A stretch of DNA of 64,000 nt from Haliotis rufescens (taxonomy: Eukaryota), in contig NW_025963890.1 in the NCBI RefSeq assembly GCF_023055435.1, positions 17,484,001-17,548,000 on the forward strand, written 5' to 3'. The notes below the pieces were generated by a model. The model was given only the letters and a program-made list of their open reading frames with translations, was not told the origin of the DNA and searched no databases. The position numbers and the translations under genes are program-made. Shown here piece after piece: positions 580 through 60,670 of the stretch; positions within the stretch are counted from its first letter, which is position 1, and the number at the start of each line of letters is the position of its first letter.

Positions 580-604
580 CTTGAACATAAGTGCTCGCAT
601 TCAT
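580..604 (-). CDS. Coding exon 1 (MNASTYVQ) of a seventh gene copy; exons 2-3 would lie left of the window
   Basis: GCCACCATG...CAAG|gtacaa matches the other copies, and 1-579 matches intron 1 of the other copies. Confidence 0.7.
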
Positions 605-2565: not shown

Positions 2566-3987
2566 GAATAAGAGGCCCATAAGGCCTGTATCGCTCACCT
2601 GGATATTGACGCAATCATTACAAAATATACATTTGCATTGTACACGTGTATAATACTGCAAATATTTCGTAATTTTGACTCTGTCAGTATTTAAAATTGG
2701 TGGGTGGCAAATCTGACAGCATAAACGTGTATTTATGTAGATACAAATGTGGCACAAAAATCTGAGCCGTTTCCATGTTATGATCCCGGATATATCATAT
2801 TAAAGGTATTATTCTCTTCATAACAAACATATGTATACAATGCATCTGTTTGTTATAGGGTGGGGATAATATCGGTTTGCATGTAATGGTCAAGGTTTTA
2901 ACTCCTTTGGGAGTGCCAGACAGATGAACAGAAGGGCCAGTCCTGGTAGCATATGTGCAATCCTCTCATTATACTCTCAATTGTACATATGGTTTATACG
3001 GTGGGGATCTTAACTGTGTCCAAGTTATAAACTCTTTTTAGCCCCGCCCCTTAGTCCCCGGGGGTGGGGGTAGGGTTCAGCCCCTCCATTTCTCCAATTT
3101 GAATCCCCATCATTGGAGAATGCTTCCATCCAAATATGATTGATAACTATCTCTTAGTTCCAGAGAGGAAGTCGTCTGAAGCAATATGGCCGATTTACCC
3201 CCATTTCGCCCCGCCCCTCAGCCTCTTGGGGGGTGATCAGCCCTTTCATTTGTACAATTTTGAATTCTCTCCACCGGAGAATGCTTCCAACAATATATGG
3301 TTGATATCTATCTCTTAGTTCAAGAGAAGAAGTCGTTTAAAACAATTACGCCAAATTACCCCTATTTGGCCACGCCCCTCAGGGGGTTGGGGGTTGCGTC
3401 CCAGCCCCTCCATTTGTACAATGTTGAATTCTCACCACCCGAGAATGCTTCCAACCAAATATGGTTGATATCTATCTCATAGTTCCAGAGAAGAAGTCGT
3501 TTAAAGCAATATAACCAAATTACCCCTATTTGGCCCCGCCCCTCAGCAGTTTTGGGGGTGTCAGCCCAACCATTTGTACAGTTTTGAATTCTCACCACCG
3601 GAGAATGCTTCCAAACAAATATGGTTGATATCTATCTCTTAGTTCTTAGTTCTAGCCAAATTACCCCTATTTGGCCCCGTCCCTCAGCGATGTCAGCCCC
3701 ACCATTTGTACAATATTGAATCCCCAACACCTAGGGATGCTTCCAGTCTAATTTTGTTAATTTCCAATTAGTGAAAATTGTTTGATAGGCATTACTTAGA
3801 AGTTGACGGATGACAAGATAGACACAATTTTATGGATAACAACTTGGCAGTATTAAAGAAGTTGTTATCCATAAAATTGTGTCTATCTTCCAATTAGTGG
3901 TTCAGAAGAAGAAGTCGTTTGAATAAATTGTTGACGTACGGACGACGGACGACGGAGGCCAGGGTATGGCATGAGCTCACCTTGGTC
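2566..3987 (+). mobile_element. Helentron/HINE-like non-autonomous element with internal ~120-bp tandem repeats
   Basis: 5' end AATAAGAGGCCCATAAGGCCTGTATCGCTCACCTGG, repeated CCCCGCCCCTCAG...GAATGCTTCC units, GACG microsatellite, truncated 3' GCTCACCTTGGTC. Confidence 0.65.
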
Positions 3988-5695: not shown

Positions 5696-6092
5696 CTAAT
5701 CATCCTTCTTCTTAAACACACTCTTGACTCTTCTGAAGAAGTTGGCCACCCTGGATAGCAAGGCCTTCAGGAAGGAGTGGGTTGGCTGGATGATCTCCTC
5801 ATCCACGAGATCTACTTCAACAAAGTCAGTGTCGTCCACGATGTACTGACCAGCGATAGTGAGGGACACAGAAGGGACAGTGCTGGGGCGAAGGGTCTGT
5901 GGGACGGGCAGGTGAGACAAGTGGGCAGGGATGGTCAGGGACTTTGAAGTGGGTTGCTATAGATAGGGAGGTAGTGGAAAGAATGGAATGTGAGGAAAGA
6001 ATATTATGTAGATGGAAAAGGTTATTCAATCATTGAATTTTATTGCAGCAAAAAAAGGATTATGGTGGTAAAGATAGAAAAGGCGATAAATA

Positions 6093-6128
<36 letters not shown>

Positions 6129-7412
6129 GATACTGAAAGGTAGATAATTTGTTTGTTGTTTAAAAACGCCGCAATCAGCAGTACTCAAGCTACATGACGG
6201 CGGTCTGTAAACAATCGAGTCTGGGCTAGACAATCCAGTGATTGACATGATGAGCATCTATAGTAAAGATGATGACATGAAGGATATTCTTGGAAATACA
6301 AATGTGACAAACTTCGCAGAATTACCGAAGCCTTTGAACCAAACTACTCTCAACATTCATAATAGGTTTTTATTAATTGCACACTGTTGGAAGGTAGGAA
6401 AATAGTATAAACATTCAGTTACGGCTTTATGAAAACAGGGACCAGTACACAGAGGTGGGTGTTCCACATATTGGTGAAAACTCATGGAAGTACTAAACAG
6501 GCATTGCTAAAGACAAGCCTTTAGGACACCTACATGGCAAGGGGCAGGATAAGTCAGTTTGGACAGAGGCTGGAGGAACCAGATCATCCGATCAACTGTG
6601 GGGAAACAGAAGAATAAACATACAGGGTATTAAACACCCAGAATGTATGTTGCTGGTCCCTAACCTTTGGCTGGTGACTAGTAAATAATATATCATTTTG
6701 CAGTTAATAAATTATTTGTGCTGACAGATAGATGGTATATCGCTAAGCTTTTAGGGGTTCCCCTTTTCCAGAATGTTCCAGTTTTATGTTGGATAAAGGG
6801 TACTTGAAATAACCAATAAAGGGCAGCTAGCCTAGACACTGCAAAGTATATCTCCCTGTTACTTTATACCTTTCACTGCTAAACTAAGTCTATTTGATAA
6901 AATACAAGGGATTCAGCCTAGCCATACAATATTGATTTGGGCTCAGAGTTTATAAGAAATCATGGGCAGATCCAGGTTTATAAAAGTGGGGGATAGGGGA
7001 TGTTCCACTTGGGCTATTTGTAACTTCAGTGGGGGCAGTTCCCACCCAAAAGACTACCCCAAGACTCACAAACATTTCATATAAACCACTGTTAATAAAT
7101 TTACGGAATTCATTTTACAACCAAATCAACATGTTATCATGGTAGGAAAGGCGCATAAAGAATGTCATGAGTTGTAAAAAATACAGAGAACCCACATTTT
7201 ATTATAATGTTTACAAGTTCAAGGTACACAAAGGGCCCTGCATCTTAAGCCCCTAAAGCATGCAAAGTGTTTGTGGTTCAGTACAGGAATCATGACAGAT
7301 CATAAACATGATGATACACACTACCTCATGACACTAATATACCAACATGTAGGTACGGAATCTACTGAAGCGTAATTAGAATTGTACCTTGAATATAAGT
7401 GCTCGCATTCAT
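5696..7412 (-). CDS. Three-exon orphan gene, copy A: join(7412..7388, 6595..6534, 5956..5696); 115 aa MNASTYIQVDRMIWFLQPLSKLTYPAPCHQPTSKSLTIPAHLSHLPVPQ...RVANFFRRVKSVFKKKDD
   Basis: Start context GCCACCATG. Donor CAAG|gtacaa (phase 1), acceptor ttcttctgtttccccacag|, donor CAT|gtaggt (phase 0), acceptor ctacctccctatctatag|. Exons of 25+62+261 nt join into one open frame ending in TAG. Confidence 0.78.
6148..6260 (-). mobile_element. 5'-truncated SINE-like repeat in intron 2, present in all six complete gene copies
   Basis: (AAAC)n tail; same family as the longer copies at ~8045-8735 and ~40055-40245. Confidence 0.7.
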
Positions 7413-15646: not shown

Positions 15647-16295
15647 TATATGTAATAAGTTGGCATTGTTGAACTATTATTCTATTTACATGTAACAGAC
15701 TTGAATGTCCAAATATGTAATCAATGATCGGTCAAATTATGCATATTGTTGCATTAAATACACAATCCGGAAGTAATGTTTTTTGATTAAGCCTAATGGC
15801 ATCGTGTAAACGTGACTATTTGCATGTATTATTTCCATTATGAGAATTGTTTTTTCTTGCTAAAACTTGTACCAGAAACAGTCATTTTTGTATAATATGT
15901 ATGAAGGCTGTTTATGCAAGTAGTATTCTAAATACTGTATTCCGGTTACAGGTGTGTATTATGATTATTGTAGACATCTTGTATGTTGAGACTGATGTAT
16001 CAGCAGTAGCTTTCATGCAGTATTGTGTTGTTGTTAAACGGTTACATTGAAGTTCACAAGTTGCTTTAAGTGATTATACCCAGTAGGTCATTATGTTTCC
16101 TAGAAAAGTGTCACTAGGTAAACTATTTCTGATATGTGTTCAGATGCATTCCATTGCACATTGTTATTGAGACTTTGGGCTATATGCTGTTGGAAAATAA
16201 ATGGTGACCTGACATCTCTCTCTCCCTCTCTGTTTTAGGGTATATTGTTGTGAGGCTGACAACTTGGCGAGCGTGCAAGGATCAGCATATGCTGC

Positions 16296-19200
16296 TTGAA
16301 GTCCACTACGACAATATTGAAGATGTCAGAGACAGAGTGGAGCATCAAATCCCGGATGTTCAGTCTGGATGTTGGTGTGTTGACAGAATCGCTGGAGTGG
16401 CTTGGAATACCTGTCAAGGCTGGTACCGACAAATCACCGTGTTTGACAACTTTAGAATCCTATATGGTAGAATGTCGTTATGATCCAAGCATTGGGGGAA
16501 AAGAAAATGCAGCTATTACCAGCTGCTGTACCTGAAACGTCAAAGACCACATCACCGCCAACAATTGTGAGGGTAGCAGATGTTAAGGAGTTCAAGATTC
16601 ATGGGTCTGTCATCAAGCAAGGAATAGGTTTCATCAATTTGATATGACAGATTGAGGCTGGAGAAGAAAGTGGTTACAGTACTGTTGAGATTATTGATGG
16701 TGTTCTTCGAGTCATTCAACCAACAGAGTCACTGAGGGGATACATTGAAGGAAAGGCTGATCTTAGTTTACCCATTCTCAGGAAGCTTCTCCAAACAGTC
16801 TATGAGGAAAAATCTGTGGCAAAACTTTATCAGGACCTTAGTTGTGGTGTTCAAGAGGAAAAAGAAGAAACTTTAGATTTTGTTTGGAGGATTCTTGACT
16901 TGAGTCAGAAAATAAATTTCTCCTGCAAAGAGGATGGATCTGATATAAGGTATGACAAGAACCTGATGATAAGTATGACCCTGAGAACAATACTCACTGG
17001 CTTGAGAGACGCCATTATTGCACAAGAATTGAGGAACACTCTGTCATCTAATCCTCTGGATCATGAGATAATTGGTCAGGTTGGCGCTGCGGTCTGCCGA
17101 GAAGGAGCGGAGAAGGAAGAGCACACGTGTTGCTGATGTTAGGTCTGTAGTGTTTGAAGAATCAAAGGATGAAACAAGTGAACTGTTAGGCGACAGTGAA
17201 TGGCTGTCAAGGCTGCCAATGGGGAGAACACACCCTTTGAAGGATGGGTTGAAGTATCATTCGAACTGATGAAGGAAACCACTGATGGGAAATTGTCTGT
17301 TCCATTTTTAGTTACTGCGATGTCCAGCATCACTACCCCAATCATAGGTATTAATGTGATCGAGCAATATCTCTTCAGTCATGCAGAGTGCAGCAGAGTC
17401 AATGTCATGCAATCAGGGCTGTCAGCAATTAGGAAAGAAAAACTGGAAGCTGTAGTTAAGCTGTTGCAAGAGGAGCGACCTGATGCAATATGTGACTTTC
17501 ACAGTGGAAGACCAGTATTACGTGTCAAAGCTGGTCAAGTGTTACAAGTGAAGTTCATAGTCGCCACTAATGTAAGTGAACCCACCACTGTCTTATTGGA
17601 ACCAAACATTAAGGAACCTTGGCCTGATGGACTGAAGATTCAAGGATCGCTTCTTAGGTTGAAGAGATTCACCCAAACAAACATTCCGGTAACATTAATG
17701 AACTGTACTAGTCATGACATTAAAGTTCACAGCAGGACATGTCTTGGTACGCTGCAGCAAGTGAGATCTGTTATACCATTACAAGGTGAGAACGAGCCAG
17801 ATCTTGACCTGAATTTAGATGATATCCTGGTATCAGATAAAGACATCAGACACCACAAGCATACAAGAGCACTGGCATCCCCCAGTAGACTTAAGTGATG
17901 ATTTATGTGAGGAACAACATGAAATGATCAAGCAGATGTTATATGAAGAGTCAGATGTGTTCAGTAAGACATGATGATATTGGGACAATAACTGATTTGA
18001 AAATGGACATTCAACTTACTGATGATGTACCTGACAGAAGTCATATGTGTCCATACCAAGTCATAGTACTCGAGCCCTCTAGTTTGTGTCAGAAGAAAGG
18101 ACTCGAGTCTGAGACTATGTGTTGACAATCGGGCACTCAATAGTGAGACAGTCTGTGACAGGCACCCTCTACCATGCATACAGTTTGGGTGGAAACCAAT
18201 GGTTTATCTTGCTTGATCAGGGGAAGGCCTATCACCAGGGCTTCATCAAGGAAAGTTGTAGACCATATACTGCTTTTATTAGTCCTTGGGGGGGCTATAT
18301 GAATGGACATGCATTCCTTTTGGTTTAACTGGAGCACCAAGTGCATTCAAGCGCTTCATGAACACTTGCTGACAAGGGCTGGGGGACACTATTTGTATTC
18401 CCTATCTTGATGGTGTTACAGTCTTCAGCAAATATTTTTCACAACATGTAGTAGATGTAAGGAATGTCTTGCAACGGTTAAAGGAATCTGGGGTTAAACT
18501 TAAACCTCGTAAGTGCAATCTATTTAAGAAACAGGTGCGCTATCTTGGACACATTGTCTCAGAACATGGTATTCAGATGGACCCAAGAGTGAGTGAGTAT
18601 GGTTTTAAATGGTCTTCACACATTGTACCCATGTCAGAAATCGAACCCCAGTCTTCAGCGTGACGAGCGATCGCTTTAACCACTAGGCTACCCAACCACA
18701 CCCGATGGACCCAAGAGACAAGGAAGCTATTCTTAACCTCAAATCTACCCAACAAGCTACAGTGAGAGACGTGAGAAGACTATTAGGATTCATTGATTAC
18801 TACAGTAAATACATTCCAGATTACTCTCGCAGAGCAGTGCTTATTCGAACTGCTGTGTTGTTCCAACTCCAATACTGTAGACAAAGGTGTGAAGGTGCGA
18901 TGGAAAAAGAAAAATCGTCAGTTGTCCTCAAGTCACAAAACCACATGGACAGATAAACATAACCAGATTCTGCATGGTCTCATAGATGACTTGTTAACTG
19001 AAAAGGTGATGGCTTACCCTGACTGGGAAAAAGAGTTTGTATTGCATGTTGATGCCTCTCAAGAAGGACTGGGTGCCATTCTGTATCAGTCACAGGAAAT
19101 TAGAAAATTAGCTGTTGTTGCATATGGATCACGATCACCGTCTCCAGTAGAAAAGAACTACCATGCTCATTCAGGGAAGTTGGAGTTTCTTGCTCTAAAA

Positions 19201-21506
19201 TGGGCAATAACAGAATGGTTCAGGGACTATTTGTACTATGCACCCATCTTCACAGTCTTTAGTGACAACAACCCTCTGACTTATATTCTTACTTCAGCTA
19301 AGCTGGATGGTACCAGACACAGATAGGTAGCAGAATTGGGTGACTATAAATTTTCAATTAAATACAAGCCTGTGAAGAAGAACTCTGTTGCAGATGGACT
19401 GAGCAGAATTCCATCAGATATTGACAAGTATATGTCTGAGTGTGTCTGTGAAATAATTCAAGAATCAATTGAAATGTCAAATCAGGTTACCAATGCTAGG
19501 GAAGAGGGTGACATTGTCTGGATTTCATCAATTACTGATGACCATACTTGTCTTTCTGAAGTTGTCTCCTCTTCCGGCTGCAAGCCTACTTTCCATTGTT
19601 TTAGTGCTGAACAAGACGATGAACACATCAGACCAGTATTGAAAAACAAACAGAAGAAAAGGACACCCAATAGAATGACTAAACACAGGACAGAAACTAT
19701 GGACCTGTTCCGGGAATGGAGGAAACTCTTTCTTAATATGGATGGCGTTCTGTGTAGAACAGTGTTGTATGGCAGTGAAGAAAGGACTCAAATAGTACTT
19801 CCCCAGCAACTTAGAGCACTTGTGTTAAAAGAACTTCACAATGAAATGGGGTACGTTGATTCAGAAAGAGTTGTGGCACTGGTGAGAGAGAGATTATTTG
19901 GTCTCGCATGCAAGCTGATGTTGAATGTTATGTCACTAAGGAATGCACTTGTCTCAAAGACCGCACGCCAACAATTCCAACAAAAGCACCCCTGAAACCA
20001 ATATCAACATCTGCACCCTTTCAATTGGTGTCTATCCACTTTCTTCATTTGGAAAGAAGCACAGGTGGCTATAAGTACATTTTAGTTGTCTGCGACCACA
20101 TTACTAGATTTGCACAAGCATATGCAACGCGAAACAAGTGAAGACTGCTGCAGAGAAAATTTTCAAAAACATTGTGCTCAAATTTGGGTTTCCAGACAAA
20201 CTGCACCATGATCAAGGCGCAGAATTTGATGAAAAGCTTTTTCATCATCTGCAGAAATATTGTCGCAAGGCGAGAACAACTCCGTATCATCCAGAGGGGA
20301 ATGGACAGGTAGAACGCTTCAACAGAACTTTGTTGGGTATGCTTCGTACCTTTCCCAGCAAAATGAAAAGTAACTAGAAAGATCATTTAAATAAAGTAGT
20401 CCAAGCAATACAACTGCATGCGAAATGATGCCACCGGTTACTCACCTTTCTTTCTACTCTTTGGGCAATCACCTAGTACCAGTGGACCTAATGTTTGGAC
20501 TTGGTAACAAAGATTTAAACAGTGATCCTAACAAATATGTGAACCAGTGGCGACAATGCATGCAACAAGCATATGATCAAGCAAATGTGATTGCCGATGA
20601 GAATGCATGAAAGGGAAAGAAGCAATATGATAAAGAAACATGTCTGAAAGAGGTGGTCCGGCAAAGTTGAAATCTTATTGGGAACCAAAGATTCACATTG
20701 TGAATAAGTCATTTGTGGGTAAAAGTCCTGTATATGAAGTGAGACCTGAAGATGGAATTGGAAGGACTAGAGTTCTACACAGAAACATGTTGCTTCCTTG
20801 TGATGGACTTCCAGTTGACAAGATTGTTGACAGAGCAAAAGCCCACAAAGCTGGAACTCAAACGCTCCGGATGAAAAAGCACATTGTCGATTATGAGCAG
20901 TCAGGGACGGACAGTGATTCTTCAGAAGGCAGTGGCCAAGTGGAGATCGATGTGAAGGAAGTTCATCCTGAGAAGCATTTTGCTGCGTCAGAAAATGCCA
21001 ATGAAACACAACACCCAGTATCAAGTCGGTCGACGGATCATGGTTCTAGTAGTGTTGAGGATCAAGATGATACTGATGTGAGTGCAAGTGAGCAGTCACT
21101 AGATGGTGACAATTCTGTGAGGACCTGTGACCAAATAGATCTACAGCTACAATCAACAGAGAGTGAGGAAGAGTCCACAGATTTTCATTATGCCGATGAT
21201 GAAGCAGAGGTGAGGAAGTCACAACGACGAAAGAAATGTCCTGTCAAACTGACATATGCCACACTAGGAAACCCAACTGAAAACAAACATGAACCTTTTG
21301 CGACTTGCATGTCCTGTGGTACCTGTTTCATGGTATTACCCATACCAAATACTGTTAACACCAGTGATACATTACCCATGGTTCCATCCAGAGAGACCTT
21401 TACAAGTGATGACCTAACATTGAAACTTCACTATGAGCACAATGGTACGACCTTAATATGTATGGGTTGCCTTATGGGAAGAGACATCCAAGTTTGTTGT
21501 ATTTAG
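16296..21506 (+). pseudogene. gag-pol pseudogene of gypsy copy 1
   Basis: Fragments PIIGINVI (protease), [10 protein letters not shown] and VKLKPRKC (RT), [11 protein letters not shown]...DNNPL (RNase H), HHDQGAEF...[19 protein letters not shown] (integrase); many frameshifts and stops. Confidence 0.93.
18590..18703 (-). mobile_element. Internally deleted SINE inserted in gypsy RT
   Basis: 14-bp TSD GATGGACCCAAGAG (18576-18589, 18704-18717); absent at the equivalent site of gypsy copy 2 (~44201). Confidence 0.9.
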
Positions 21507-22519
21507 TACAGTCTGAAGTACAAAAGGTATTTCCACTTAGAATAACATTATGTAACAGTAAAAGGTTTGCAGTATTGTTTGACTGGACGTCTAGCAGAAT
21601 TGTTGCCTTCAGTGTCAAATATCGTAATAAATGTTCACTACAGGTTGTACACTTTGAAAGTGGTATTTTGCTGCCACTGAGGAACTTATTTGCCACTGAG
21701 GAACTTATTTCTTAATATTTTAAGTAGTTCTTTCTGTTAATATGTTTTCAAAACTATTGTTGAAGTTGTATTTGTAGTTCGCATACATATCTGTTGAAAA
21801 GTCGGGCCGATATTTTTTTTTATGGGGGGCAAATGTAAGAAAGTGAAATAATGATAATGTCCATGGTCAAAGGGAAGTAACTCTTTGGATGGGTGCGCTA
21901 CCACCCGAAGGTCAACTGACCAATCAAAATTGCCGGTTTGCTTTGGGCTGTATGCCGTTGGAAAATAAATAGTGACCTGACATCTCTCTCTCTCCCTGTT
22001 TTAGGAATGTATGCATTAATATTGGTCGAAATAAGGCCGTCTTGTATCACATATTGTAGATAACAATGCTAGGACATAGGTTGTAGGTATTCTGTCAGAG
22101 GTAGCATCGTACATTTGTTGTATTTTTGATTTATCGAGCCAAGCAGAAACCTCACGGTTAGCGTTAGACGTTCCGTCATTGACTGATTGTGTTTCAGAGG
22201 CCTTTGACTATTAAAGGAATGTAATTCCCATTTTCGGTATGGGAATAGAATTCTAATAGTTTTGGTTCAGGAATAGAATAGTTGTTTTAACTTTTAACAT
22301 TAAATATTCGCCAATGCTTTTTAAACTCTGGTTGTCACCCATTTTCGGGGGTCAGTGACCGCATTAGCTAGATTCAGGGGAAGTAACCCTTATCTTGTTA
22401 CATTCCTGAAAGCTCATGTCCTTGTCATGTTTGTTATTGTTTTGATTTTGAATTATGACCGCTCAATTCAGTCTTTTTTATTGTATTCAGTTAGTAACTG
22501 CTGCTGTATTATATATGTA

Positions 22520-22887
22520 CCATATTCGACATGATAAGGACCCAGGGCACTCTCATAATTTGAAATAGGAGACTCTTATTAGAATACAATTTTTGTGGAT
22601 TAAAAAAACACATTTGAAAGATCCTAAATTTCGTGGTTTATGCTGACAGCCTTAAATGATACAAAAGAAAAGTCTGTGTGTATTATACACAACAGATATA
22701 TTTTTCCAGAATTTAATTGCCCATAATTAAGGGTGCATATAATACACAGGTGTGTATTATACACGAATAAAAAAGTCTTGTGTACATTAGGGAATTGGAA
22801 GGAATTGGGATTGTTCGCTAGCCAATATATTAGCAAATACCGCCATGGGTGCTTATAAGAGCGGGGTGCTTATTAGGCCGAATACGG
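22520..22887. mobile_element. TA-flanked MITE (Tc1/mariner/pogo-like) in the 3' LTR of gypsy copy 1
   Basis: TA|CCATATTCG...CGAATACGG|TA; absent from both 5' LTRs. Confidence 0.75.
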
Positions 22888-23975
22888 TAATAAGTTGGCA
22901 TTGTTGTACTATTATTCTATTTACATGTAACAGACTTGAATGTCCAAATATGTAATCAGTGATTGGTCAGATTATGCATATTGTTGCATTAAATACACAA
23001 TCCGGAAGTAATGTCTTTTTATAAAGCCTAATGGAATAGTGTAAAAGTTTTCCTTGGAGCCTTGGAAACACAATGCTGTGTGGCCATGACATTAATCCGG
23101 TGTCGGAAAGAACTCGACAAAATGATTTGTGGTACATTTTGTGGTACAACGTCTGCCACACTCCATGCATTAATTCCCCATGGTGGTCAGAAGTTATGTA
23201 TTATTCGTGGTACAACTTTCTACTCCATGATTTGTTTATTACCAAACATTTTGCAAGTAATATATTTCCTAAATATTGTAATGAATGCGCCAACAGTCCT
23301 AAAGGAGGACTCACTCACATATTCATGAGTTTCACATATTTTCTTATCCTAAAAAATCTCCTGTGAAGATTAAGTAATGTCCAGTCAGTATGTGAGTGGA
23401 TGTGACGTTCAGAATGTTAATTTCTTTCCAGAATTAAATAGGTTAAACACCTGTTCAAATGGTGCACCTGCGTGCCGTCGCAGATGTAGCAGCTGTTTAT
23501 GGACTACATGTGTGATCACCATGCATTAGTGAGTGAGTGAGTTGGGTTTAACGCCGCTTTTAACTGAATTCCAGTTATGTCACAGCATGTCAGCTTAATG
23601 TGGGAGGAAAGTGATGCAGGTCTGAGACGTTTACCGCTTTGGTGAAACCCACAAGCACGGGTATGGTTTTGACAAACCTAGAAACATAATCGGGGCGAAC
23701 CAGGATTTGAACCCACAAGCATAGGTTTTTGGCGTGCCCAAGGGACGCAACTCTGGACAGCGAATCGCCTTAGTACTGGGCCACTGCGTCAAATCAAAAC
23801 AAAACAAAATGTTGTAACAAATAATGTATTTCATTAACATAAAGGAAATAGCCAAACCAAACAGAGATAGATTTTATGTATTTCCCAAATATTGTAACAA
23901 ATGCCTCAACAGTCCTAAAATGATTCAAAAATGTTTTGTATATAAGTATATACATATGTGTTCAGAGTTCACTGC

Positions 23976-25725
23976 CTAATCATCCTTCTTCTTAAACACA
24001 CTCTTGACTCTTCTGAAGAAGTTGGCCACCCTAGATAGCAAGGCCTTCAGGAAGGAGTGGGTTGGCTGGATGATCTCCTCATCCACGAGATCTACTTCAA
24101 CAAAGTCAGTGTCGTCCACGATGTACTGACCAGCGATAGTGAGGGACACAGAAGGGACAGTGCTGGGGCGAAGGGTCTGTGGGACGGGCAGGTGAGACAA
24201 GTGGGCAGGGATGGTCAGGGACTTTGAAGTGGGTTGCTATAGATAGGGAGGTAGTGGAAAGAATGGAATGTGAGGAAAGAATATTATGTAGATGGAAAAG
24301 GTTATACAATCATTGAATTCTATTGCAGCAAATAAAAGATTATGGTGGTAAAGACAGAAAAGGTGTGACAAAAGAAACAAGGTAAATAAAGATGATATAT
24401 AGTAGATACCGAAAGGTAAATATTTGTTTGTTGTTTAAAAACGCCGCACTCAGCAGTATTCCAGCTACATGACGGCGGTCTGTAAACAATCGAGTCTTGA
24501 CTAGACAATCCAGTGATTGACATCATGAGCATCTATAGTAAAGATGATGACTTGAATGATATTCTTGGAAATACAAATGTGACAAACTTTACAGAATTAC
24601 TGAAGCCTTTGAACCAAAGTACTCTTAACATTCGTAATAGGGTTATATTAATTGCATACAGTTGGTTTAAGGTAGGAAAACAGTATAAACATTCAGTTAC
24701 AGCTTTATGAAAACAGAGACCAGTACATAGAAGTGTTCAACATATCGGTGAAAACTCATGGAAGTGCTAAACAGGCATTGTTAAAGACAACCCTTTATGA
24801 CACCTACATGGCAAGGGGCAGGATAAGTCAGTTGGGACAGAGGCTTGAGGAACCAGATCATCCGATCAACTATGGGGAAACAGAAGAATACACATACAGG
24901 TATTAAACACCCAGAATGTATGTTGCTGGTTCCTAATCTTTGGGTGATGACTAGTAAATTATATATCATTTTGCAGTTAATAAATTATTTGTGCTGACCG
25001 ATAGGTTGTATATAGCTAAGCTTTTAGGGGTTCCTCTTTTCCAAAATGTTCCAGTTTTATGTTGGATAAAGGGTAGATCTAATTGTAATAACTAAGGGCA
25101 GCTAGCCTAGACACTGCAAAGTATATCTCCCTGTTACTTTATAACTTGAACCCCTCAGACAATATAAGGGATAATAAGTTACAGTTTACCTTTCACTGCT
25201 AAACTAAGTCTATTTGCTAAAATACAAGGGATTTTGCCTAGCCATACAATACTGATTTGGGCTCAGACTGCTGTGTCAGTTCTTAGAGTTTATAAGAAAT
25301 CATGGGCAGATCCAGGTTTATAAAAAAGGGAGTGGGGGACAGGGGATGTTCCACTTGGGCTATTTGTAACTTCAGTAGGGGCAGTTCCCACCCAAAAAAC
25401 TTCCCCAAGACTCACAAACTCTTCATGTAAACCACTGATAATACATTTACATTGTTCATTTTACATCCAAATCAACATGTTACCATGGTAGGAAAGGCGC
25501 ATAAAGAATGTCATGAGATGTAAAAGACACAAGAACCCACATTTTATTATAATGTTTACAAGTTCAAGGTATACAAAGGTCCCTGCATTCAACAACTTAA
25601 GCCCCTAAAGCATGCAGTGTTTGAAGATACACACTACCTCATCACACTAATACACCAACGTGTAGGTACGGAATCTACTGAAGCGTAATTAGAATTGTAC
25701 CTTGAACATAAGTGCTCGCATTCAT
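23976..25725 (-). CDS. Three-exon orphan gene, copy B: join(25725..25701, 24869..24808, 24236..23976); 115 aa
   Basis: Same exon lengths and splice dinucleotides as copy A. Exon 2 reads VDRMIWFLKPLSQLTYPAPCH. Start context GTCATCATG. Confidence 0.78.
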
Positions 25726-26784: not shown

Positions 26785-28245
26785 GAATAAGAGGCCCATA
26801 GGGCCTGTATCGCTCACCTGGATATTGACGCAATCATGACAAAATATACATTTGCATTGTACATGTATATAATACTCCAAATATTTCGTAATTTTGATTC
26901 TGTCAGCATTTAATATGGGTGGATGGCCAATCTGACAGCATAAACGTGTATTTATCTAGATACAAATGTGGCATAAAGATCTGAACCGTTTCCATGTTAT
27001 GATCCAGGATATATCATATTTAAGGTATTATTCTCTTCATAACAAACAAATGTATACAATGTATCTGTTTATTATAGGCTGGGGATAACATCGGTTTGCA
27101 AGTTATGGTCAAGATTTCAACTCCTTTGGGAGTGCCGGACAGATGAACAGAAGGGCAAGTCCTTGTAGCATATGTGCATTCCTCTCATTATACTCTCAAT
27201 TGTACATATGGTTATACGGTAGGAATCTTAACTGTGTCCAAGTTATAAACTCTTTTTAGCCCCGCCCCTTAGTCCCCGGGGTAGGGGGTAGGGTTCAGCC
27301 CCTCCATTTCTCCAATTTGAATCCCCACCATTGGAGAATACTTCCATCCAAATATGGTTAAAAACTATCTCTTAGTACCAGAGAGGAAGTCGTCTGAAGC
27401 AATATAGCCAAACTACCCCTATTTCGCCCCGCCCCTCAGCCTCTTAGGGGATGATCAGCCCTTCCATTTGTACAATTTTGAATTCTCACCACCAGAGAAT
27501 GCTTCCAACAATATATGGTTGATATCTATCTCTTAGTTCTAGAGAAGAAGTCGTTTAAAGTAATATGGCCAAATTACGCCTATTTCGCCCCGCCCCTCAG
27601 GCTCTTCAGGGGTGATCAGCCCTACCATTTGTACAATTTTGAATTCTCACCACCCACCGGGGAATGCTTCCAACAATATATGGTTGATATCTATCTCTCA
27701 GTTCAAGAGAAGAAGTTATTTAAAACAATAACGCCAAATTACTCCTATTTGGCCCCGCCCCTCACTAGTTTGGGTGGGGGTGGGATGTCAGCCCCACCAT
27801 TTGTACACCTAGGGATGCTTCCAGTCTAATTTTGTTAATTTCCAACTAGTAGTTCAGAAGAAGTTTAAAACGATAACGCCAAATTACTATTTGGCCACGC
27901 CCCTAAGCCCCTTAGGGTGTGATCAGCCCCTCCAATTGTACAGTTTTGAATCCTCACAACCGGAGAATGCTTCCACCCAAATATGATTGATATCTATCTC
28001 TTAGTTCTGGAGAAGAAGTCGTTTAAAGCAATATAGCCAAATAACGCCTATTTGGCCCCGCCCCTCAGCCCCTGGGGGAGCCCCACCATTTGTACAATTT
28101 TGTAATCCCACCACCTAGGGATGCTTCCAGTCTTATTTTGTTAATGTCCAACTAGTGGTTCAGAAGAAGAAGTCGTTTGAATAAATTGTTGACGGATGAT
28201 AGACGGACGACGGACGCCACGGTATGGCATAAGCTCACCTTGGTC
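26785..28245 (+). mobile_element. HINE-like element, second copy
   Basis: Same termini and internal repeats as 2566-3987. Confidence 0.65.
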
Positions 28246-30338: not shown

Positions 30339-32120
30339 CTAATCATCCTTCTTCTTAAACACACTCTTGACTCTTCTGAAGAAGTTGGCCACCCTAGATA
30401 GCAAGGCCTTCAGGAAGGAGTGGGTTGGCTGGATGATCTCCTCATCCACGAGATCTACTTCAACAAAGTCAGTGTCGTCCATGATGTACTGACCAGCGAT
30501 AGTGAGGGACACAGAAGGGACAGTGCTGGGGCTAAGGGTCTGTGGGACGGGCAGGTGAGACAAGTGGGCAGGGATGGTCAGGGACTTTGAAGTGGGTTGC
30601 TATAGATAGGGAGGTAGTGGAAAGAATGGAATGTGAGGAAAGAATATTATGTAGATGGAAAAGGTTATTCAATCATTGAATTTTTACTGCAGCAAATAAA
30701 AGATTATGGTGGTAAAGACAGAAAAGGGTATGACAAAAGAAACAAGGTAAATAAAGATGATATATAGTAGATACCGAAAGGTAAATATTTGTTTGTTGTT
30801 TAAAAACGCCGCACTCAGCAGTATTCCAGCTACATGACGGCAGCTGTAAACAATCGAGTCTTGACTAGGCAATCCAGTGATTGACATGATGAGCATCTAT
30901 AGTAAAAATGATGACTTGAAGGATATTCTTGGAAATACAAATGTGACAAACTTTACAGAATTACTGAAGCCTTTGAACCAAAGTACTCTCAACATTCGTA
31001 ATAGGGTTATATTAATTGCATACAGTTGGTTTCAGGTAGGAAAACAGTATAAACATTCAGTTACAGCTTTATGAAAACAGACCAGTACACAGAAGTGGGT
31101 GTTCGACATATCAGTGAAAACTCATGGAAGTGCTAAACAGGCATTGCTAAAGACAAGCCTTCAGGACACCTACATGGCAAGGGGCAGGATAAGTCAGTTG
31201 GGACAGAGGCTGGAGGAACCAGATCATCTGATCAACTGTGGGGAAAAAGAGGAATAAACATACAGGGTACTAAACACCCAGAATGTATGTTGCTGGTTCC
31301 TACTCTTTGGCTGGTGACTAGTAAATTATATATGTATTATTTTGCGGTTAATAAATTATTTGTGCTGACAGATAGGTGGTATATCGCTAAGCTTTTAGGG
31401 GTTCCCCTTTTCCAAAATGTTCCAGTTTTATGTTGGATAACGGGTAGATCTAATTGTAATAACCAAGGGCAGCTAGCCTAGACACTGCAAAGTATATCTC
31501 CCTGTTACTTTATAACTTGAACCCCTCAGACAAAATATGGGATAAGTTACAGTTTACCTTTCACTGCTAAACTAAGTCTATTTGCTAAAATACAAGGGAT
31601 TCAGCCAAGCCATACAATATTGATTTGGGCTCAGACTGCTGTGTCAGTTCTGAGAGTTTATAAGAAATCATGGGCAGATACAGGTTTATAAAAAAGGGAG
31701 TGGGGGACAGGGGATGTTCCACTTGGGCTATTTGTAACTTCAATACGGGCAGTTCCCACACAAAAGACTACCCCAAGACTCACAAACACTTCATGTAAAC
31801 CAATGATAATACATTTACAGAATTCATTTTACAACCAAATCAACATGTTACCATAGTAGGAAAGGCGCATAAAGAATGCCATGAGATGTAAAAGACACAA
31901 GAACCTACATTTTATTATAATGTTTACAAGTTCAAGGTATACAAAGGTCCCTGCATTCAACATCTTAAGCCCCTAAAGCATGCAGTGTTTGAAGATCAGC
32001 ACAGGAGCCATGATACACACTACAGACTGTACCTCATCACACTAAAATACCAACGTGTAGGTACAGAATCTACTGAAGCGTAATTAGAATTGTACCTTGA
32101 ACATAAGTGCTCGCATTCAT
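30339..32120 (-). CDS. Three-exon orphan gene, copy C: join(32120..32096, 31235..31174, 30599..30339); 115 aa
   Basis: Same exon structure. Substitutions R>Q in exon 2, R>S and V>M in exon 3. No indels or stops. Confidence 0.77.
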
Positions 32121-33192: not shown

Positions 33193-34652
33193 AATAAGAG
33201 GCCCATAGGGCCTGTATCGCTCACCTGGATATTGACGCAATCATGACAAAATATACATTTGCATTGTACATGTATATAATACTCCAAATATTTCGTAATT
33301 TTGATTTTGTCAGCATTTAATATGGGTGGATGGCCAATCTGACAGCATAAACGTGTATTTATCTAGATACAAATGTGGCATAAAGATCTGAACCGTTTCC
33401 ATGTTATGATCCAGGATAAATCATATTTAAGGTATTATTCTCTTCATAACAAACCAATGTATACAATGTATCTGTTTATTATAGGGTGGGGATAATATCG
33501 GTTTGCAAGTTATGGTCAAGATTTCCACTCCTTTGGGAGCGCCGGACAGATGAACAGAAGGGCAAGTCCTTGCAGCATATGTGCATTCCTCTCATTGTTC
33601 TCTCAATTGTACATATGGTTATACGGTTGGGATCTTAACTGTGTCCAAGTTATAAACTCTTTTTAGCCCCGCCCCTTAGTCCTCCGGGGTAGGGGTAGGG
33701 TTCAGCCCCTCCATTTCTCCAATTTGAATCCCCACCATTGGAGAATACTTCCATCCAAATATGGTTAAAAACTATCTCTTTGTACCAGAGAGGAAGTCTT
33801 CTGAAGCAATATAGCCAAACTACCCCTATTTCGCCCCGCCCCTCAGCCTCTTGGGGGATGATCAGCCCTTCCATTTGTACAATTTTGAATTCTCACCACC
33901 AGAGAATGCTTCCAACAATATATGGTTGATATCTATCTCTTAGTTCTAGAGAAGAAGTCGTTTAAAGTAATATGGCCAAATTACGCCTATTTCGCCCCGC
34001 CCCTCAGGCTCTTCAGGGGTGATCAGCCCTACCATTTGTACAATTTTGAATTCTCACCACCCACCGGGGAATGCTTCCAACAATATATGGTTGATATCTA
34101 TCTCTCAGTTCAAGAGAAGAAGTTATTTAAAACAATAACGCCAAATTACTCCTATTTGGCCCCGCCCCTCACTAGTTTGGGTGGGGGTGGGATGTCAGCC
34201 CCACCATTTGTACACCTAGGGATGCTTCCAGTCTAATTTTGTTAATTTCCAACTAGTGGTTCAGAAGAAGTTTAAAACGATAACGCCAAATTACTATTTG
34301 GCCACGTCCCTAAGCCCCTTAGGGTGTGATCAGCCCCTCCAATTGTACAGTTTTGAATCCTCACAACCGGAGAATGCTTCCACCCAAATATGATTGATAT
34401 CTATCTCTTAGTTCTGGAGAAGAAGTCGTTTAAAGCAATATAGCCAAATAACGCCTATTTGGCCCCGCCCCTCAGCCCCTGGGGGAGCCCCACCATTTGT
34501 ACAATTTTGTAATCCCACCACCTAGGGATGCTTCCAGTCTTATTTTGTTAATGTCCAACTAGTGGTTCAGAAGAAGAAGTCGTTTGAATAAATTGTTGAC
34601 GGATGATAGACGGACGACGGACGCCACGGTATGGCATAAGCTCACCTTGGTC
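33193..34652 (+). mobile_element. HINE-like element, third copy
   Basis: Near-identical to 26785-28245. Confidence 0.65.
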
Positions 34653-36746: not shown

Positions 36747-37439
36747 CTAATCATCCTTCTTCTTAAACACACTCTTGACTCTTCTGAAGAAGTTGGCCAC
36801 CCTAGATAGCAAGGCCTTCAGGAAGGAGTGGGTTGGCTGGATGATCTCCTCATCCACGAGATCTACTTCAACAAAGTCAGTGTCGTCCACGATGTACTGA
36901 CCAGCGATAGTGAGGGACACAGAAGGGACAGTGCTGGGGCTAAGGGTCTGTGGGACGGGCAGGTGAGACAAGTGGGCAGGGATGGTCAGGGACTTTGAAG
37001 TGGGTTGCTATAGACAGGGAGGTAGTGGAAAGAATGGAATGTGAGGAATGTATATTATGTAGATGGAAAAACATAGAAAAGGTGTGAAAAAAGAAACAAG
37101 GTAAATATATATATATAAAATGATTTGGATACACTTTCCTTATATCATTTTGCAACTCTGAGTTTCACGCACCCATGTTATTACGTACGATCATCAGGCA
37201 TAATGAAACATGATTTTTAGTTTAACCCTTTCTTTTTTGCTCGGCTTGGGGGTTTACCATGGCGACAGGTGAAAATGAGCTCGCTTCTTTTGTTTAGCTT
37301 GTTGGATGTTAGCGTGAAACTTAGCACGTTAGCATGGGTGCATGAAACTCAGAGTTGCAAAATGATATAAGGAAAGTGTATCCAAATCTGTATTTATGCT
37401 CTACTTGTATTGAGCACTCTCTTCTGCAATTGGATCGTA

Positions 37440-37515
<76 letters not shown>

Positions 37516-38606
37516 GTAGATACCGAAAGGTAGATAATTTGTTTGTTGTTTAAAAACGCCACTCAGCAGTATTGCAGCTACATGACGGCGGTCTGTAAAC
37601 AGTCGAGTCTGGACTAGACAATCCAGTGATTGACATCATGAGCATCTATAGTATAGAGATGATGACATGAAGGATATTCTTGGAAATACAAATGTGACAA
37701 ACTTCGCAGAATTACTGAAGCCTTTGAACCAAAGTACTCTCAACATTCATAATAGGGTTTTATTAATTGCATACTGTTGGTTTAAGGTAGGAATATAGTA
37801 TAAACATTCAGTTACAGCTTTATAAAAACAGGGACCAGTACACAGAGGTGTTCCACATATCGGTGAAAACTCATGGAAGTGCTAAACAGGCATTGTTAAA
37901 GACAAGCCTTTATGACACCTACATGGCAAGGGGCAGGATAAGTCAGTTGGGACAGAGGCTGGAGGAACCAGATCATCCGATCAACTGTGGGGAAACAGAA
38001 GAATAAACATACAGGGTATTAAACGCCCAGAATGTATGTTGCTGGTCCCTAACCTTTGGCTGGTGACTAGTAAATAATATATCATTTTGCAGTTAATAAA
38101 TTATTTGTGCGGACAGATAGGTGGTATATCGCTAAGCTTTTAGGGGTTCCCCTTTTCCAAAATGTTGCAGGGGTGTGTTCCACTTGGGCTATTTGTAACT
38201 TCAATACGGGCAGTTCCCACACAAAAGACTACCCCAAGACTCACAAACACTTTATGTAAACCACCTATATTAATACATTTACGGAATTCATTTTACAACC
38301 AAATCAACATGTTATCATGGTAGGAATGGTGCATAAAGAATGTCGTGAGATGTAAAAAGAACACCAGAACCCATGTTTTCTTATAATGTTTACAAGTTCA
38401 AGGTACACAAAGGGCCCTGCATTCAACATCTTAAGCCCCCAAAGTATCAAAGTGTTTGTGGTTCAGTACAGGAGTCATGATAGATCGTAAACATGATGAT
38501 ACACACTGCCTCATCACACTAATACACCAACAATGGCAACATGTAGGTACGGAATCTACTGAAGCGTAATTAGAATTGTACCTTGAACATAAGTGCTCGC
38601 ATTCAT
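36747..38606 (-). CDS. Three-exon orphan gene, copy D: join(38606..38582, 37984..37923, 37007..36747); 115 aa
   Basis: Exons and splice sites are intact despite a fold-back insertion, a (GT)n tract and deletions in the introns. Confidence 0.77.
37122..37388. mobile_element. Fold-back element in intron 2 of copy D
   Basis: 56-bp near-perfect inverted arms at 37122-37177 and 37333-37388. Confidence 0.8.
37442..37508. repeat. (GT)n microsatellite
   Basis: Uninterrupted TG run seen directly. Confidence 0.97.
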
Positions 38607-41600: not shown

Positions 41601-41858
41601 CTAAACAGTTACATTGAAGTTCACAAGTTGATTTAAGTAAGTATACCTGGTAGGTCATTATGTTCCTGGAAAAATGTCACCAGGTAAACTATTTCTGATA
41701 TGTGTTCAGATGTATTCCGTTGTGCATTGTGATTGAGACTTTGGGGCTGTATGCCGTTGGAAAATAAATGGTGACCTGACATCTCTCTCTCTCTGTTTTA
41801 GGGTATATTGTTGTGAGGCTGACAACTTGGCGAGCGTGCCAGGATCAGCATATGTTGC

Positions 41859-47062: not shown

Positions 47063-48056
47063 GTACAGTCTGAAGTACAAAAGGTATTTCCACTTAGAAT
47101 AACTATGTGTAACAGTAAAAGGTTTGCAGTATTCTTTGACTGGACGTCTAGCAGTATTGTTGCCTTCAGTGTCAAATATCATGATGTATGTAAAACTACA
47201 GGTTGTACACTTTGAAAGTGGTATTTTGCTGCCACTGAGGAACTTACGTCTTAATAATTTAAGCAGCGCTTACTGTTAATATGTTTTCAAAACTGTTGTT
47301 GAAGGTGTATTTGTAGTTCGCATACATATCTGTTGAAATGTCGGGATCACATTTTTTTATGGGGGGCAAATGTAAGAAAGTGAAATAATGATAATGTCCA
47401 TGGTCAAAGGGAAGTTACTCTTTGGGTGGGTGCGCTACCACCCAAAGGTCAACTGACCAATCAAAATTGCCTGTTTACTTTGGGCTGTATGCTGTTGGAA
47501 AATAAATGGTGACCTGACATCTCTCTCTCTCCCTGTTTTAGGTATGTATGCAATAATATTGGTCGAAATAAGGCCGTCTTGTATCACATATTGTAGATAA
47601 CAATGCTAGGACATAGGTTGTAGGTATTCTCTCAGAGGTAGCATCGTATATTTATTGTATTTTCGATTTATCGAGCCAAGCAGAAACCTCGTGGTTAGCG
47701 TTAGACGTTCGGTCATTGACAGATTGTGTTTCACAGGCTTTTTTATTATTAATGGAATGTGATTCCCATTTTCGGTATGGGAATAGAATTCTAATAGTTT
47801 TGGTTCAGGAATAGAATAGTTGTTTTGAACTTTTAACATTAAATATTCGCCAATGCTTTTTAAACTCTGGTTGTCACCTATTTTCGGGGGTCAGTGACCG
47901 CATTAACTAGATTCAGGGGAAGTAACCCTTATCTTGTTACATTCCCTAAAGCACATCCTTGTCATGTTTGTTATTGTTTTGATTTTGAATTATGACCGCT
48001 CCATGCAGTCTTTTTTATTGTATTCAGTTAGTAACTGCTGCTGTATTATATATGTA

Positions 48057-48422
48057 CCATATTCGACGTGATAAGGACCCAGGGCACTCTCATAATTAGA
48101 AATAGGTGACTCTTACTAGAATAAAATTTTGGTGGATTAAAAAAACACAGTTGAAAGATCGTAAATTTCGTGGTTTATGCTGACAGCCTGAAATGATACA
48201 AAAGAAAAGTCTGTTTGTATTATACACGACAGATATATTTTTCTAGAATTTAATTGCCCATAATTATGGGTGCATATAACACACGTGTGTATTATACAGG
48301 AATAAATAAGTCTTGTGTATATTGATCAATTGGAAGGAATTGCGATTGTTCACTAGCCAATATATTAGCAAATACCGCCATGGGCGCTTATTAGAGCAAG
48401 GTGCTTATTAGACCGAATACGG
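48057..48422. mobile_element. Same MITE in the 3' LTR of gypsy copy 2
   Basis: Same termini and same LTR position as 22520-22887. Confidence 0.75.
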
Positions 48423-49341: not shown

Positions 49342-51117
49342 CTAATCATCCTTCTTCTTAAACACACTCTTGACTCTTCTGAAGAAGTTGGCCACCCTGG
49401 ATAGCAAGGCCTTCAGGAAGGAGTGGGTTGGCTGGATGATCTCCTCATCCACGAGATCTACTTCAACAAAGTCAGTGTCGTCCACGATGTACTGACCAGC
49501 GATAGTGAGGGACACAGAAGGGACAGTGCTGGGGCGAAGGGTCTGTGGGACGGGCAGGTGAGACAAGTGGGCAGGGATGGTCAGGGACTTTGAAGTGGGT
49601 TGCTATAGATAGGGAGGTAGTGGAAAGAATGGAATGTGAGGAATGAATATTATGTAGATGGAAAAAGTTAGTCAATCATTGAATTTTATTGCAGCAAATA
49701 AAAGATTATGGTGGTAAAGACAGAAAAGGTGTGAAAAAAGAAACAAGGTAAATAAAGATGATATAAATAGTAGATACCGAAAGGTAGATAATGCAAAGGG
49801 AAGGTAGATTGTTTGTTTGTTTGTTGTTTAAAAACGTTGCACTCAGCAATATTCCAGCTACATTACGGTGGTCTGTAAATAATCAAGTCTGGGCTAAGAC
49901 AATCCAGTGATTGACATCATGAGCATTGATAGTAAAGATGTTGACATGAAGGATATTCTTGGAAATACAAATGTGACAAACTTTACAGAATTATTGAAGC
50001 CTTTGAACCAAAGTACTCTCAACATTCATAATAGGGTTTTATTAATTGCATACTGTTGGTTTAAGGTAGGAATATAGTATAAACATTCAGTTACAGCTTT
50101 ATAAAAACAGGGACCAGTACACAGAGGTGTTCCACATTTCGGTGAAAACTCATGGAAGTGCTAAACAGGCATTGTTAAAGACAAGCCTTTAGGACACCTA
50201 CATGGCAAGGGGCTTGATAAGTCAGTTGGGACAGAGGCTGGAGGAACCAGATCATCCGATCAACTGTGGGGAAAAAGAGGAATAAACATACAGGGTATTA
50301 AACACCCAGAATGTATGTTGCTGGTTCCTAATCTTTGGGTGATGACTAGTAAATTATATATCATTTTGCAGTTTATAAATTATTTATGCTGACAGATAGG
50401 TGGTATATATAGCTTAGCTTTTAGGGGTTCCCCTTTTACAAAATGTTCCATTTTTATGTTGGATAAAGAGTAATGGTAATAATCACTGCAAAGTATATCT
50501 CCCTGTTACGTTATGACTTGAGCCCCTCAGACAAAATATGGGATAATAAGTTACAGTTTACCTTTTACTGCTAAACTAAGTCTATTTGCTAAAATACAAG
50601 GGATTCCGCCTAACCATACAATATTGATTTGGACTCAGACTGCAGTGTACATTCTGAGAGTATATAAGAAATCATGAGCAGATCCAGGATTTAAAAAAAA
50701 GGGAGTGGGGGCAGGGGTGTGTTCCACTTGGGCTATTTGTAACTTCAGTAGGGGCAGTTCCCACACAAATCACTTCCCCAAGACTCACAAACACTTCATG
50801 TAAACCACTGTTAAAATACATATACGGATTTCATTTTACAACCAAATCAACATGTTACCATGGTAGGAAAGGCGCATAAATAATGTCATGAGATGTAAAA
50901 GACACAAGAACCTACATTTTATTATAATGTTTACAAGTTCAAGGTATACAAAGGTCCCTGCATTCAACATCTTAGCCCCTAAAGCATGCAGTGTTTGAAG
51001 ATCAGTACAGGAGCCATGATACACTCCCCCTCATCACACTAAAATACCAACATGTAGGTACAGAATCTACTGAAGCGTAATTAGAATTGTACCTTGAACA
51101 TAAGTGCTCGCATTCAT
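49342..51117 (-). CDS. Three-exon orphan gene, copy E: join(51117..51093, 50263..50202, 49602..49342); 115 aa
   Basis: Same exon structure with GCCACCATG start. Exon 2 ends TYQAPCH. Confidence 0.78.
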
Positions 51118-58931: not shown

Positions 58932-60670
58932 CTAATCATCCTTCTTCTTAAACACACTCTTGACTCTTCTGAAGAAGTTGGCCACCCTAGATAGCAAGGC
59001 CTTCAGGAAGGAGTGCGTTGGCTGGATGATCTCCTCATCCACGAGATCTACTTCAACAAAGTCAGTGTCGTCCACGATGTACTGACCAGCGATAGTGAGG
59101 GACACAGAAGGGACAGTGCTGGGGCGAAGGGTCTGTGGGACGGGCAGGTGGGACAAGTGGGCAGGGATGGTCAGGGACTTTGAAGTGGGTTGCTATAGAT
59201 AGGGAGGTAGTGGAAAGAATGGAATGTGATGAATGAATATTATGTAGATGGAAAAGGTTATACAATCATTGAATTTTATTGCAGCAAATAAAAGATTATG
59301 GTGGTAAAGACAGAAAAGGTGTGACAAAAGAAACAAGGTAAATAAAGATGATATATATAGTAGATACCGAAAGGTAGATAATTTGTTTGTTGTTTAAAAA
59401 CGCTGCAATCAGCAGTATTCCAGCTACATGACGGCGGTCTGTAAACAATCGAGTCTGGAATGGACAATCCAGTGATTGACATGATGAGCATCTATAGTAA
59501 AGATGATGACTTGAAGGATATTCTTGGAAATACAAATGTGACAAACAGAATTACTGAAGTCGTTGAACCAAAGTACTCTCAACATTCATAATAGGGTTTT
59601 ATTAATTGCATACTGTTGGTTTAAGGTAGGAATATAGTATAAACATTCAGTTACAGCTTTATAAAAACAGGGACCAGTACACAGAGGTGTTCCACATTTA
59701 GGTGAAAACTCATGGAAGTGCTAAACGGGCATTGTTAAAGACAACCCTTTATGACACCTACATGGCAAGGGGCAGGATAAGTCAGTTGGGACAGAGGCTG
59801 GAGGAACCAGATCATCCGATCAACTGTGGGGAAACAGAAGAATAAACATACAGGGTATTAAACATCCAGAATATATGTTGCTGGTCCCTAACCTTTGGCT
59901 GTTGACTAGTTAATAATATATCATTTTGCAGTTAATAAATTATTTGTGCTGACAGATAGGTTGTATATAGCGAAGCTTTTAGGGGTTCTCCTTTTCCAAA
60001 ATGTTCCAGTTTTATGTTGGATAAAGGGTAATTGAACTTGAACTTGAACCCCCCAGATAAAATATAGGATAATAAGTTACAGTTTACCTTTCACTGCTAA
60101 ACTAATTCTATCTGATAAAATACAAGGGGTTCCGCCTAGCCATACAATATTGATTTGGACTCAGACTGCTGTGTACATTCTGAGAGTTTATAAGAAATCA
60201 TGAGCAGTTTCAGGATTTTAAAAAAAGGGAGTGGGGGCAGGGGTGTGTTCCACTTGGGCTATTTGTAACTTCAGTAGGGGCACTTCCCACCCAAAACACT
60301 ACCAAAGACTCACACACACTTCATGTAAACCACCGTTAATAAATTAACGAAATTAATTTTACAACCAAATGAACATGTTATCATGGTAGGAACGGCGCAT
60401 AAAGAATGTCGTGAGATGTAAAAAAAACAAACCCAACAGAACCCACATTTTCTAATAATGTTTACAAGTTCAAGGTACACAAAGGGCCCTGCATTCAACA
60501 TCTTAAGCCCCTAAAGCATGCAAAGTGTCTGTGGTTCAGTACAGGAATCATGACAGATCATAAACATGATGATACACACTACCTCATGACAGTAATATAC
60601 CAACATGTAGGTACGGAATCTACTGAAGCGTAGTTAGAATTGTACCTTGAACATAAGTGCTCGCATTCAT
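58932..60670 (-). CDS. Three-exon orphan gene, copy F: join(60670..60646, 59823..59762, 59192..58932); 115 aa
   Basis: Same exon structure with GACACCATG start. Its private exon-3 changes are synonymous. Confidence 0.78.

Follow-up and report, generated by a model that had tools for sequence, protein, structure and literature searches.

An acidic LIR/FIR-like motif and a predicted amphipathic helix in an abalone multigene family: a candidate adaptor for ATG8-coated membranes

The window analysed in this work is a stretch of 64,000 nucleotides from Haliotis rufescens that carries six complete copies of a three-exon abalone gene. The exons of 25, 62, and 261 nt are joined across GT-AG introns and give an open product of 115 amino acids in all six complete copies. 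The acidic motif DDTDFVEV is always located in the last exon. It is coded on the minus strand (5836-5813 in copy 1), and the five identical copies start at the higher of the two motif coordinates listed for each of them in Table 1. The first-pass annotation had reported this motif as identical in the six complete copies, which was reproduced, and its numbering of F74 and V77 was right.

The gene is regarded as real because of the open product in the six copies, the intron-1 joint, and the matching NCBI models of Haliotis relatives. Intron 1 of copy 1 is skipped exactly (6595|7388) by contigs from three of the four sequencing runs, whose RNA status was only guessed; no listed run is recorded as RNA. 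The intron-2 joint is not among the joints listed in any of these four runs. In length, exon structure, and junctions, the window gene agrees with the NCBI models of Haliotis relatives. An alternative intron-2 donor located 4 nt further gives a short frame without the motif, and it was rejected because the motif frame is used by all NCBI models and is conserved in the family.

The six copies diverge by 1.2% in coding sequence and by 6.6-7.7% in introns, and the synonymous sites also vary little. This low coding divergence against the higher intron divergence could be a sign of gene conversion or of constrained exons. The variable codons among the window copies (seven non-synonymous and three synonymous) are uninformative on selection.

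Several repeated elements are interspersed with the gene copies. Two related Gypsy-type LTR retrotransposons that are about 90% identical and match the RT RNase H family of Pfam lie at 41242-49088 and 15648-23048. The second one has 669-bp terminal repeats that are 96.9% alike, and the reading frames of both are broken into pieces. Both elements sit directly beyond the 3' end of a gene copy; joint duplication of element and gene is therefore a possibility. A reverse-transcriptase fragment (52857-53645, minus strand) and a Tc1/mariner-type transposase (54924-55832, plus strand) are both located between gene copies 5 and 6. A tandem repeat of 161-164 bp occurs in several array units (3061-3645, 27295-27764, and 33702-34171). 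Intron 2 of copy 1 contains a short repeat of very high copy number (6140-6260) that is SINE-like by appearance and for which all four runs show a summed contig depth of more than 100,000.

Table 1. Coordinates of the gene copies and of the features of copy 1 in the window.
Feature	Position	Strand	Basis or remark
Acidic LIR/FIR-like motif, copy 1, residues 70-77	5813..5836	-	F74 at 5824-5822, V77 at 5815-5813; best-conserved 8-mer of the family
L79, motif position +5	5807..5809	-	Invariant in 48/48 relatives
Second conserved block, residues 58-63, S-V-S-[LV]-x-I	5855..5872	-	Family alignment
Cationic amphipathic helix (predicted), residues 90-110	5714..5776	-	AlphaFold helix 91-112 and hydrophobic moment
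Exon 3, copy 1, residues 30-115 and stop	5696..5956	-	Sequence and gene structure
Exon 2, copy 1, 62 nt	6534..6595	-	Acceptor used in the intron-1 joint
Exon 1, coding part, copy 1, 25 nt, ATG at 7412	7388..7412	-	Donor used in the intron-1 joint
Gene copy 2	23976..25725	-	Motif 24093-24116
Gene copy 3	30339..32120	-	Motif 30456-30479
Gene copy 4	36747..38606	-	Motif 36864-36887
Gene copy 5	49342..51117	-	Motif 49459-49482
Gene copy 6	58932..60670	-	Motif 59049-59072
Exon 1 of a seventh copy	580..604	-	Remaining exons would fall past the left edge of the window

The invariance of the motif in the six copies had been offered as an argument for a LIR. The invariance itself stands, but it carries no weight because nearly all of exon 3 is equally invariant: 84 of its 86 residues and 63 of its 79 8-mers are unchanged across the copies, as are 108 of the 115 residues of the protein. 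The bare core [WFY]xx[LIV] turns up in 96% of 20,000 shuffles of the 115-residue protein. A core that has at least two upstream acids and is free of G, P, K, and R is found in 7.7% of the whole-protein shuffles and in 27% of shuffles restricted to residues 66-86. The full motif pattern appears in 0.005% and 0.5% of shuffles, but these rates are given no weight, since the pattern had been fitted to the motif once it was known.

Apart from one unnamed ENA protein, the protein searches returned only Haliotis proteins annotated as 'uncharacterized', and neither the protein nor the profile searches gave a named relative from another genus. The profile search yielded 17 clusters with 73 member sequences. 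Exon 3 gave five matches when compared with 1.84 billion representatives. Pfam holds no family for exon 3, and the 11-member alignment gave only two weak matches below the cut-off. The ESM Atlas gave no usable match for exon 3 or for the full protein. No cargo-binding domain was found with Pfam, the PDB sequence search, or the ESM Atlas, and no longer or fused forms of the family were present among 8000 scored candidates, which is a weak negative result. The one PDB match, at E=1.1, was judged to be chance, and one of the five exon-3 matches, a bacterial Calx-beta repeat protein (P0028), is a chance acidic match and was dropped before all family counts.

The counts that follow are based on 48 fetched family proteins, from which P0028 and the window's own exon were left out. 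These proteins split into several deep branches in a tree whose bootstrap is not fully settled, and pairwise identity in the family falls to about 34%. The pattern D-x-x-F-x-E-[V/I]-x-L is present in all 48. In a weighted alignment of 19 sequences, DDTDFVEV tops the list of 108 8-mers, as FVEV does that of the 4-mers. Residues 70-79 hold four of the nine columns that are invariant in the 19 sequences (P=0.003), and the corresponding value with five deep representatives is P=0.04. For residues 70-77 alone, the values are P=0.016 with the 19 sequences and P=0.094 with the five deep representatives. None of the 41 columns of the linker (residues 16-56) is invariant. The depth of this conservation test is limited because the named relatives all belong to one genus, Haliotis.

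Among the deep representatives, a second block (residues 57-63) is as conserved as the motif, with four of its seven columns invariant (P=0.009), and it is not accounted for by a LIR. Its S-V-S-[LV]-x-I segment (5855-5872, minus strand) lies 11-16 residues upstream of the motif Phe and contains two invariant serines. The segment could be a phosphorylation site, a self-association beta-strand, or a second docking motif. The calcineurin PxIxIT motif was considered for residues 57-62 and rejected as it fits only 23 of the 48 proteins. In one subfamily (P0031, P0046, P0047, and P0049), His replaces Asp at -1 of the motif, and +4 is Leu or Pro. Judged from these substitutions, the subfamily could have a shifted selectivity for ATG8 or FIP200.

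The canonical LIR core [W/F/Y]-x-x-[L/I/V] (PMC6499816) is found in all 48 family proteins. The 19 aligned sequences all have two to three acids at -1 to -4, an acid occupies -1 in 44 of the 48 proteins, and the core is free of G, P, K, and R, in line with the LIR rule of upstream acidic or phosphorylatable residues and a core without these four residues (PMC7615515). The GABARAP motif is given as (W/F)-(V/I)-X-V in the same source. The window core fits it, and the strict GABARAP type with Val at +3 is found in only 28 of the 48. Conservation of FxxV in relatives had been named as a check on the LIR reading; Phe and an aliphatic [V/I] at +3 are kept in 48/48, but Val itself occupies +3 in only 29/48, with Ile in the other 19/48. 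Leu is present at +5 in 48/48 and an acid at +7 in 30/48. The FIR consensus [DEST]-[DEST]-hydrophobic-x-x-[ILV] (PMC7615515) is found in 42/48. The examples of ULK1 and ATG13 that had been cited for the motif agree with PMC6499816, which describes Val at +1 and Met at +2. Calls of LIRs from patterns or sequence only contain many false positives (PMC5119064, PMC12582063). The xLIR hexamer pattern does not match the window motif, where Thr at -2 lies outside the pattern, and the site was matched in 1 of the 19 sequences; this pattern is a predictor and not a requirement.

The protein is predicted to be largely disordered. The first-pass annotation had described a Pro/Ser/Thr-rich, probably disordered linker upstream of the motif, and this agrees with a P/S/T content of 47% in residues 16-60 and with the lack of predicted secondary structure there (block pLDDT 50-67). 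Residues 1-90 have no predicted structure, which fits an accessible LIR, weakly so as the alignment has only 11 rows. From the same shallow 11-row alignment, AlphaFold predicted a single helix at residues 91-112 (mean pLDDT 60.9, pTM 0.21). The best 18-mer has a hydrophobic moment of 0.61-0.68 and a charge of +3 to +6 in 20 of the 20 sequences. No transmembrane segment was detected, since the highest 19-residue Kyte-Doolittle mean is at most 1.25 in 19 of the 20 sequences and 0.75 in the window protein; the one exception above 1.25 is a C-terminal extension in one model. The membrane-type helix that had been proposed downstream of the motif is thus retained as a predicted cationic and amphipathic helix, but not as a transmembrane one. 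By prediction, it is a surface-binding amphipathic helix and not a transmembrane anchor. A simple hydropathy scan found no hydrophobic core of a signal peptide near the N-terminus (best 8-residue mean 0.75-1.74). The charge is -8 in residues 70-84 against +6 in residues 90-115, and the net charge is 0.

Several known systems resemble the motif. SAMM50 has a crystallised LIR in which FVEV follows acids (PMC8160579). The same holds for RVFV NSs, whose Glu pairs with R28 of GABARAP (PMC10986958), and DS-FVEI of OPTN is a dual LIR/FIR (PMC7615515). The abalone family has both the FVEV and the FVEI cores after an acidic flank. However, SAMM50 and OPTN are large and folded and have known routes for cargo, and Leu at +5 is absent from SAMM50. 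In SCOC, the Asp at -3 and the Leu at +5 contact GABARAP (PMC8202330), and both residues are invariant in the abalone family. SCOC also shares with the abalone motif the Phe, an aliphatic residue at +3, and acids at +7 and +8, but it is a Golgi coiled-coil protein with Thr/Asn at +1/+2. The LIR reading of the motif is favoured by its rank as the best-conserved segment of the family and by the validated FVEV of SAMM50 and NSs; it is qualified because other proteins use this motif class to bind the FIP200 Claw and the TFIIH p62 PH domain. Judged from sequence, the motif probably binds ATG8 in one role or another.

The closest likeness to the whole layout is the yeast protein Hab1, a cargo-hitchhiking receptor, in which an amphipathic helix (3-15) and an AIM (35-38) jointly bind only lipidated Atg8 (Atg8-PE) and which carries ribosomes into bulk autophagosomes (PMC11294605). 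Both proteins are small and have an amphipathic helix near an F-[IV]-x-[IV] Atg8 motif, and no transmembrane segment is noted for Hab1 in the cited sections. The order of the elements is reversed in the abalone protein, where the motif comes first and the helix is C-terminal, and the gap between helix and motif is about 20 residues in Hab1 and about 12 in the abalone protein. The abalone family also differs in being animal and multicopy, and its ATG8 binding is putative. Ribosomes are the cargo of Hab1. No fungal match was obtained in the protein searches with the abalone family that would indicate sequence homology to Hab1. The abalone protein would be a convergent, mirror-image version of Hab1.

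We propose, with a probability of about 0.45 that the full mechanism is correct, that the abalone protein may be a Hab1-like adaptor for ATG8-coated membranes. The acidic motif would dock on ATG8/GABARAP while the amphipathic helix would grip the neighbouring lipid surface. By comparison with known LIR structures, F74 and V77 would fill the two hydrophobic pockets of ATG8, D71/D73 and E76 would pair with basic residues, and L79 would pack on the edge of pocket 2. A preference for lipidated, membrane-attached ATG8 is suggested by the analogy with Hab1 only. By the same analogy, the protein may carry itself, and cargo bound by residues 1-65, into autophagosomes as they form, and the variable N-terminal half may serve for cargo or for self-association. 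In the broadest version of this proposal, abalones independently evolved the first animal 'hitchhiking' adaptors and amplified them to dozens of genes in several subfamilies, where the LIR and the amphipathic helix read ATG8-lipidated membranes and the variable N-terminal halves load subfamily-specific cargo; we consider this version rather unlikely. The family is a natural animal candidate for a lipidated-ATG8 adaptor and is small enough for peptide tests. If the adaptor reading is true, it would also be a case in which a farmed mollusc has amplified an autophagy adaptor as a tandem gene family specific to its lineage.

The first-pass annotation had read the motif and the helix as the minimal layout of a selective-autophagy receptor. 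The motif and the predicted helix are both present, but a transmembrane anchor is not; with its amphipathic helix, the arrangement suits a Hab1-type adaptor no less well than an organelle-anchored receptor. The family is not to be filed as a selective-autophagy receptor. An organelle-bound receptor of this type, whose helix parks on lipid droplets, mitochondria, or ER while the motif brings in ATG8, and perhaps FIP200, for degradation of the organelle, is unlikely. It would share the conservation of the motif in 48/48 proteins, and the frequent FIR consensus (42/48) together with the dual LIR/FIR of OPTN (PMC7615515) would suit it, as would the localisation of the Hab1 helix alone to ER and other membranes (PMC11294605). 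Against this, 19 of the 20 sequences stay at or below the Kyte-Doolittle mean of 1.25, and about 12 residues between motif and helix make a short tether.

We also find it improbable that the motif does serve for docking but binds something other than ATG8, such as the TFIIH p62 PH domain, the FIP200 Claw alone, or a basic beta-edge domain such as SUMO. UVSSA binds the p62 PH domain through acids followed by F408, V409, E410, and V411 (PMC5727438), and FVEV of RVFV NSs binds both p62 and LC3/GABARAP (PMC10986958). Both share the F-V-E-V core after acids in a disordered region with the abalone protein. GABARAP binding depends only weakly on position +2 (PMC6499816), yet E76 at this position is invariant, which hints at another partner and fits the E410 contact of UVSSA. 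The basic C-terminus could furthermore serve as a nuclear signal. However, the Phe of UVSSA follows an unbroken run of eight acids, whereas a run of five or more is found in 0 of the 48 abalone proteins; the acidic strings that bind the p62 PH domain are polymorphic (PMC5727438). The +3 position is Ile in 19/48, the invariant Leu at +5 has a precedent with ATG8 and none was found for the p62 PH domain in the cited sections, and the conserved amphipathic helix nearby points to membranes. If the motif serves another partner, it would still be the functional core of an uncharacterised family with 73 catalogued sequences.

Defence genes are often tandemly expanded. The helix could accordingly be imagined as a membrane-disrupting defence peptide, with the acidic segment as an anionic pro-piece that keeps it neutralised before cleavage. 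The opposite charges of the two segments, the strong amphipathicity, and a tandem expansion that has given 17 clusters with 73 member sequences fit this picture. It is nevertheless very unlikely, as the hydropathy scan found no hydrophobic signal-peptide core, no Pfam antimicrobial family was matched, and a pro-piece needs charge and not invariant F, E, and L at fixed spacing. Scarcely any credence is left for a coincidental LIR match in a young, recently amplified orphan gene, which the frequency of bare cores in shuffles and the 1.2% coding divergence of the window copies would allow, but against which the motif is kept across branches of 34-47% identity beside a linker with no invariant column, and which is weakened by D-x-x-F-x-E-[V/I]-x-L in 48/48.

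Comparing the Hab1-like adaptor reading with the literature, the motif and the helix-plus-AIM principle are already known, and the family, its expansion, and the animal setting appear to be undescribed. The Hab1 paper proposes that eukaryotes other than yeast may have adaptors specific for lipidated ATG8, and the mammalian examples cited in the sections considered are engineered sensors only (PMC11294605). No abalone LIR study was present among the 20 papers listed of 1,455 matches, and no paper was found that names the searched NCBI gene numbers, the search covering the papers proper; these genes may be listed in expression tables of supplements.

ATG8-like sequences were also encountered outside the abalone genome. 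An animal-type GABARAP is located in a metagenome contig (L179:105-455, minus strand). In addition, 66 contigs of the viral collection (L001-L066), many of them labelled as giant-virus bins, match the ATG8 motif. Host contamination is possible for these contigs, and most of them have a complete intronless ATG8-like reading frame.
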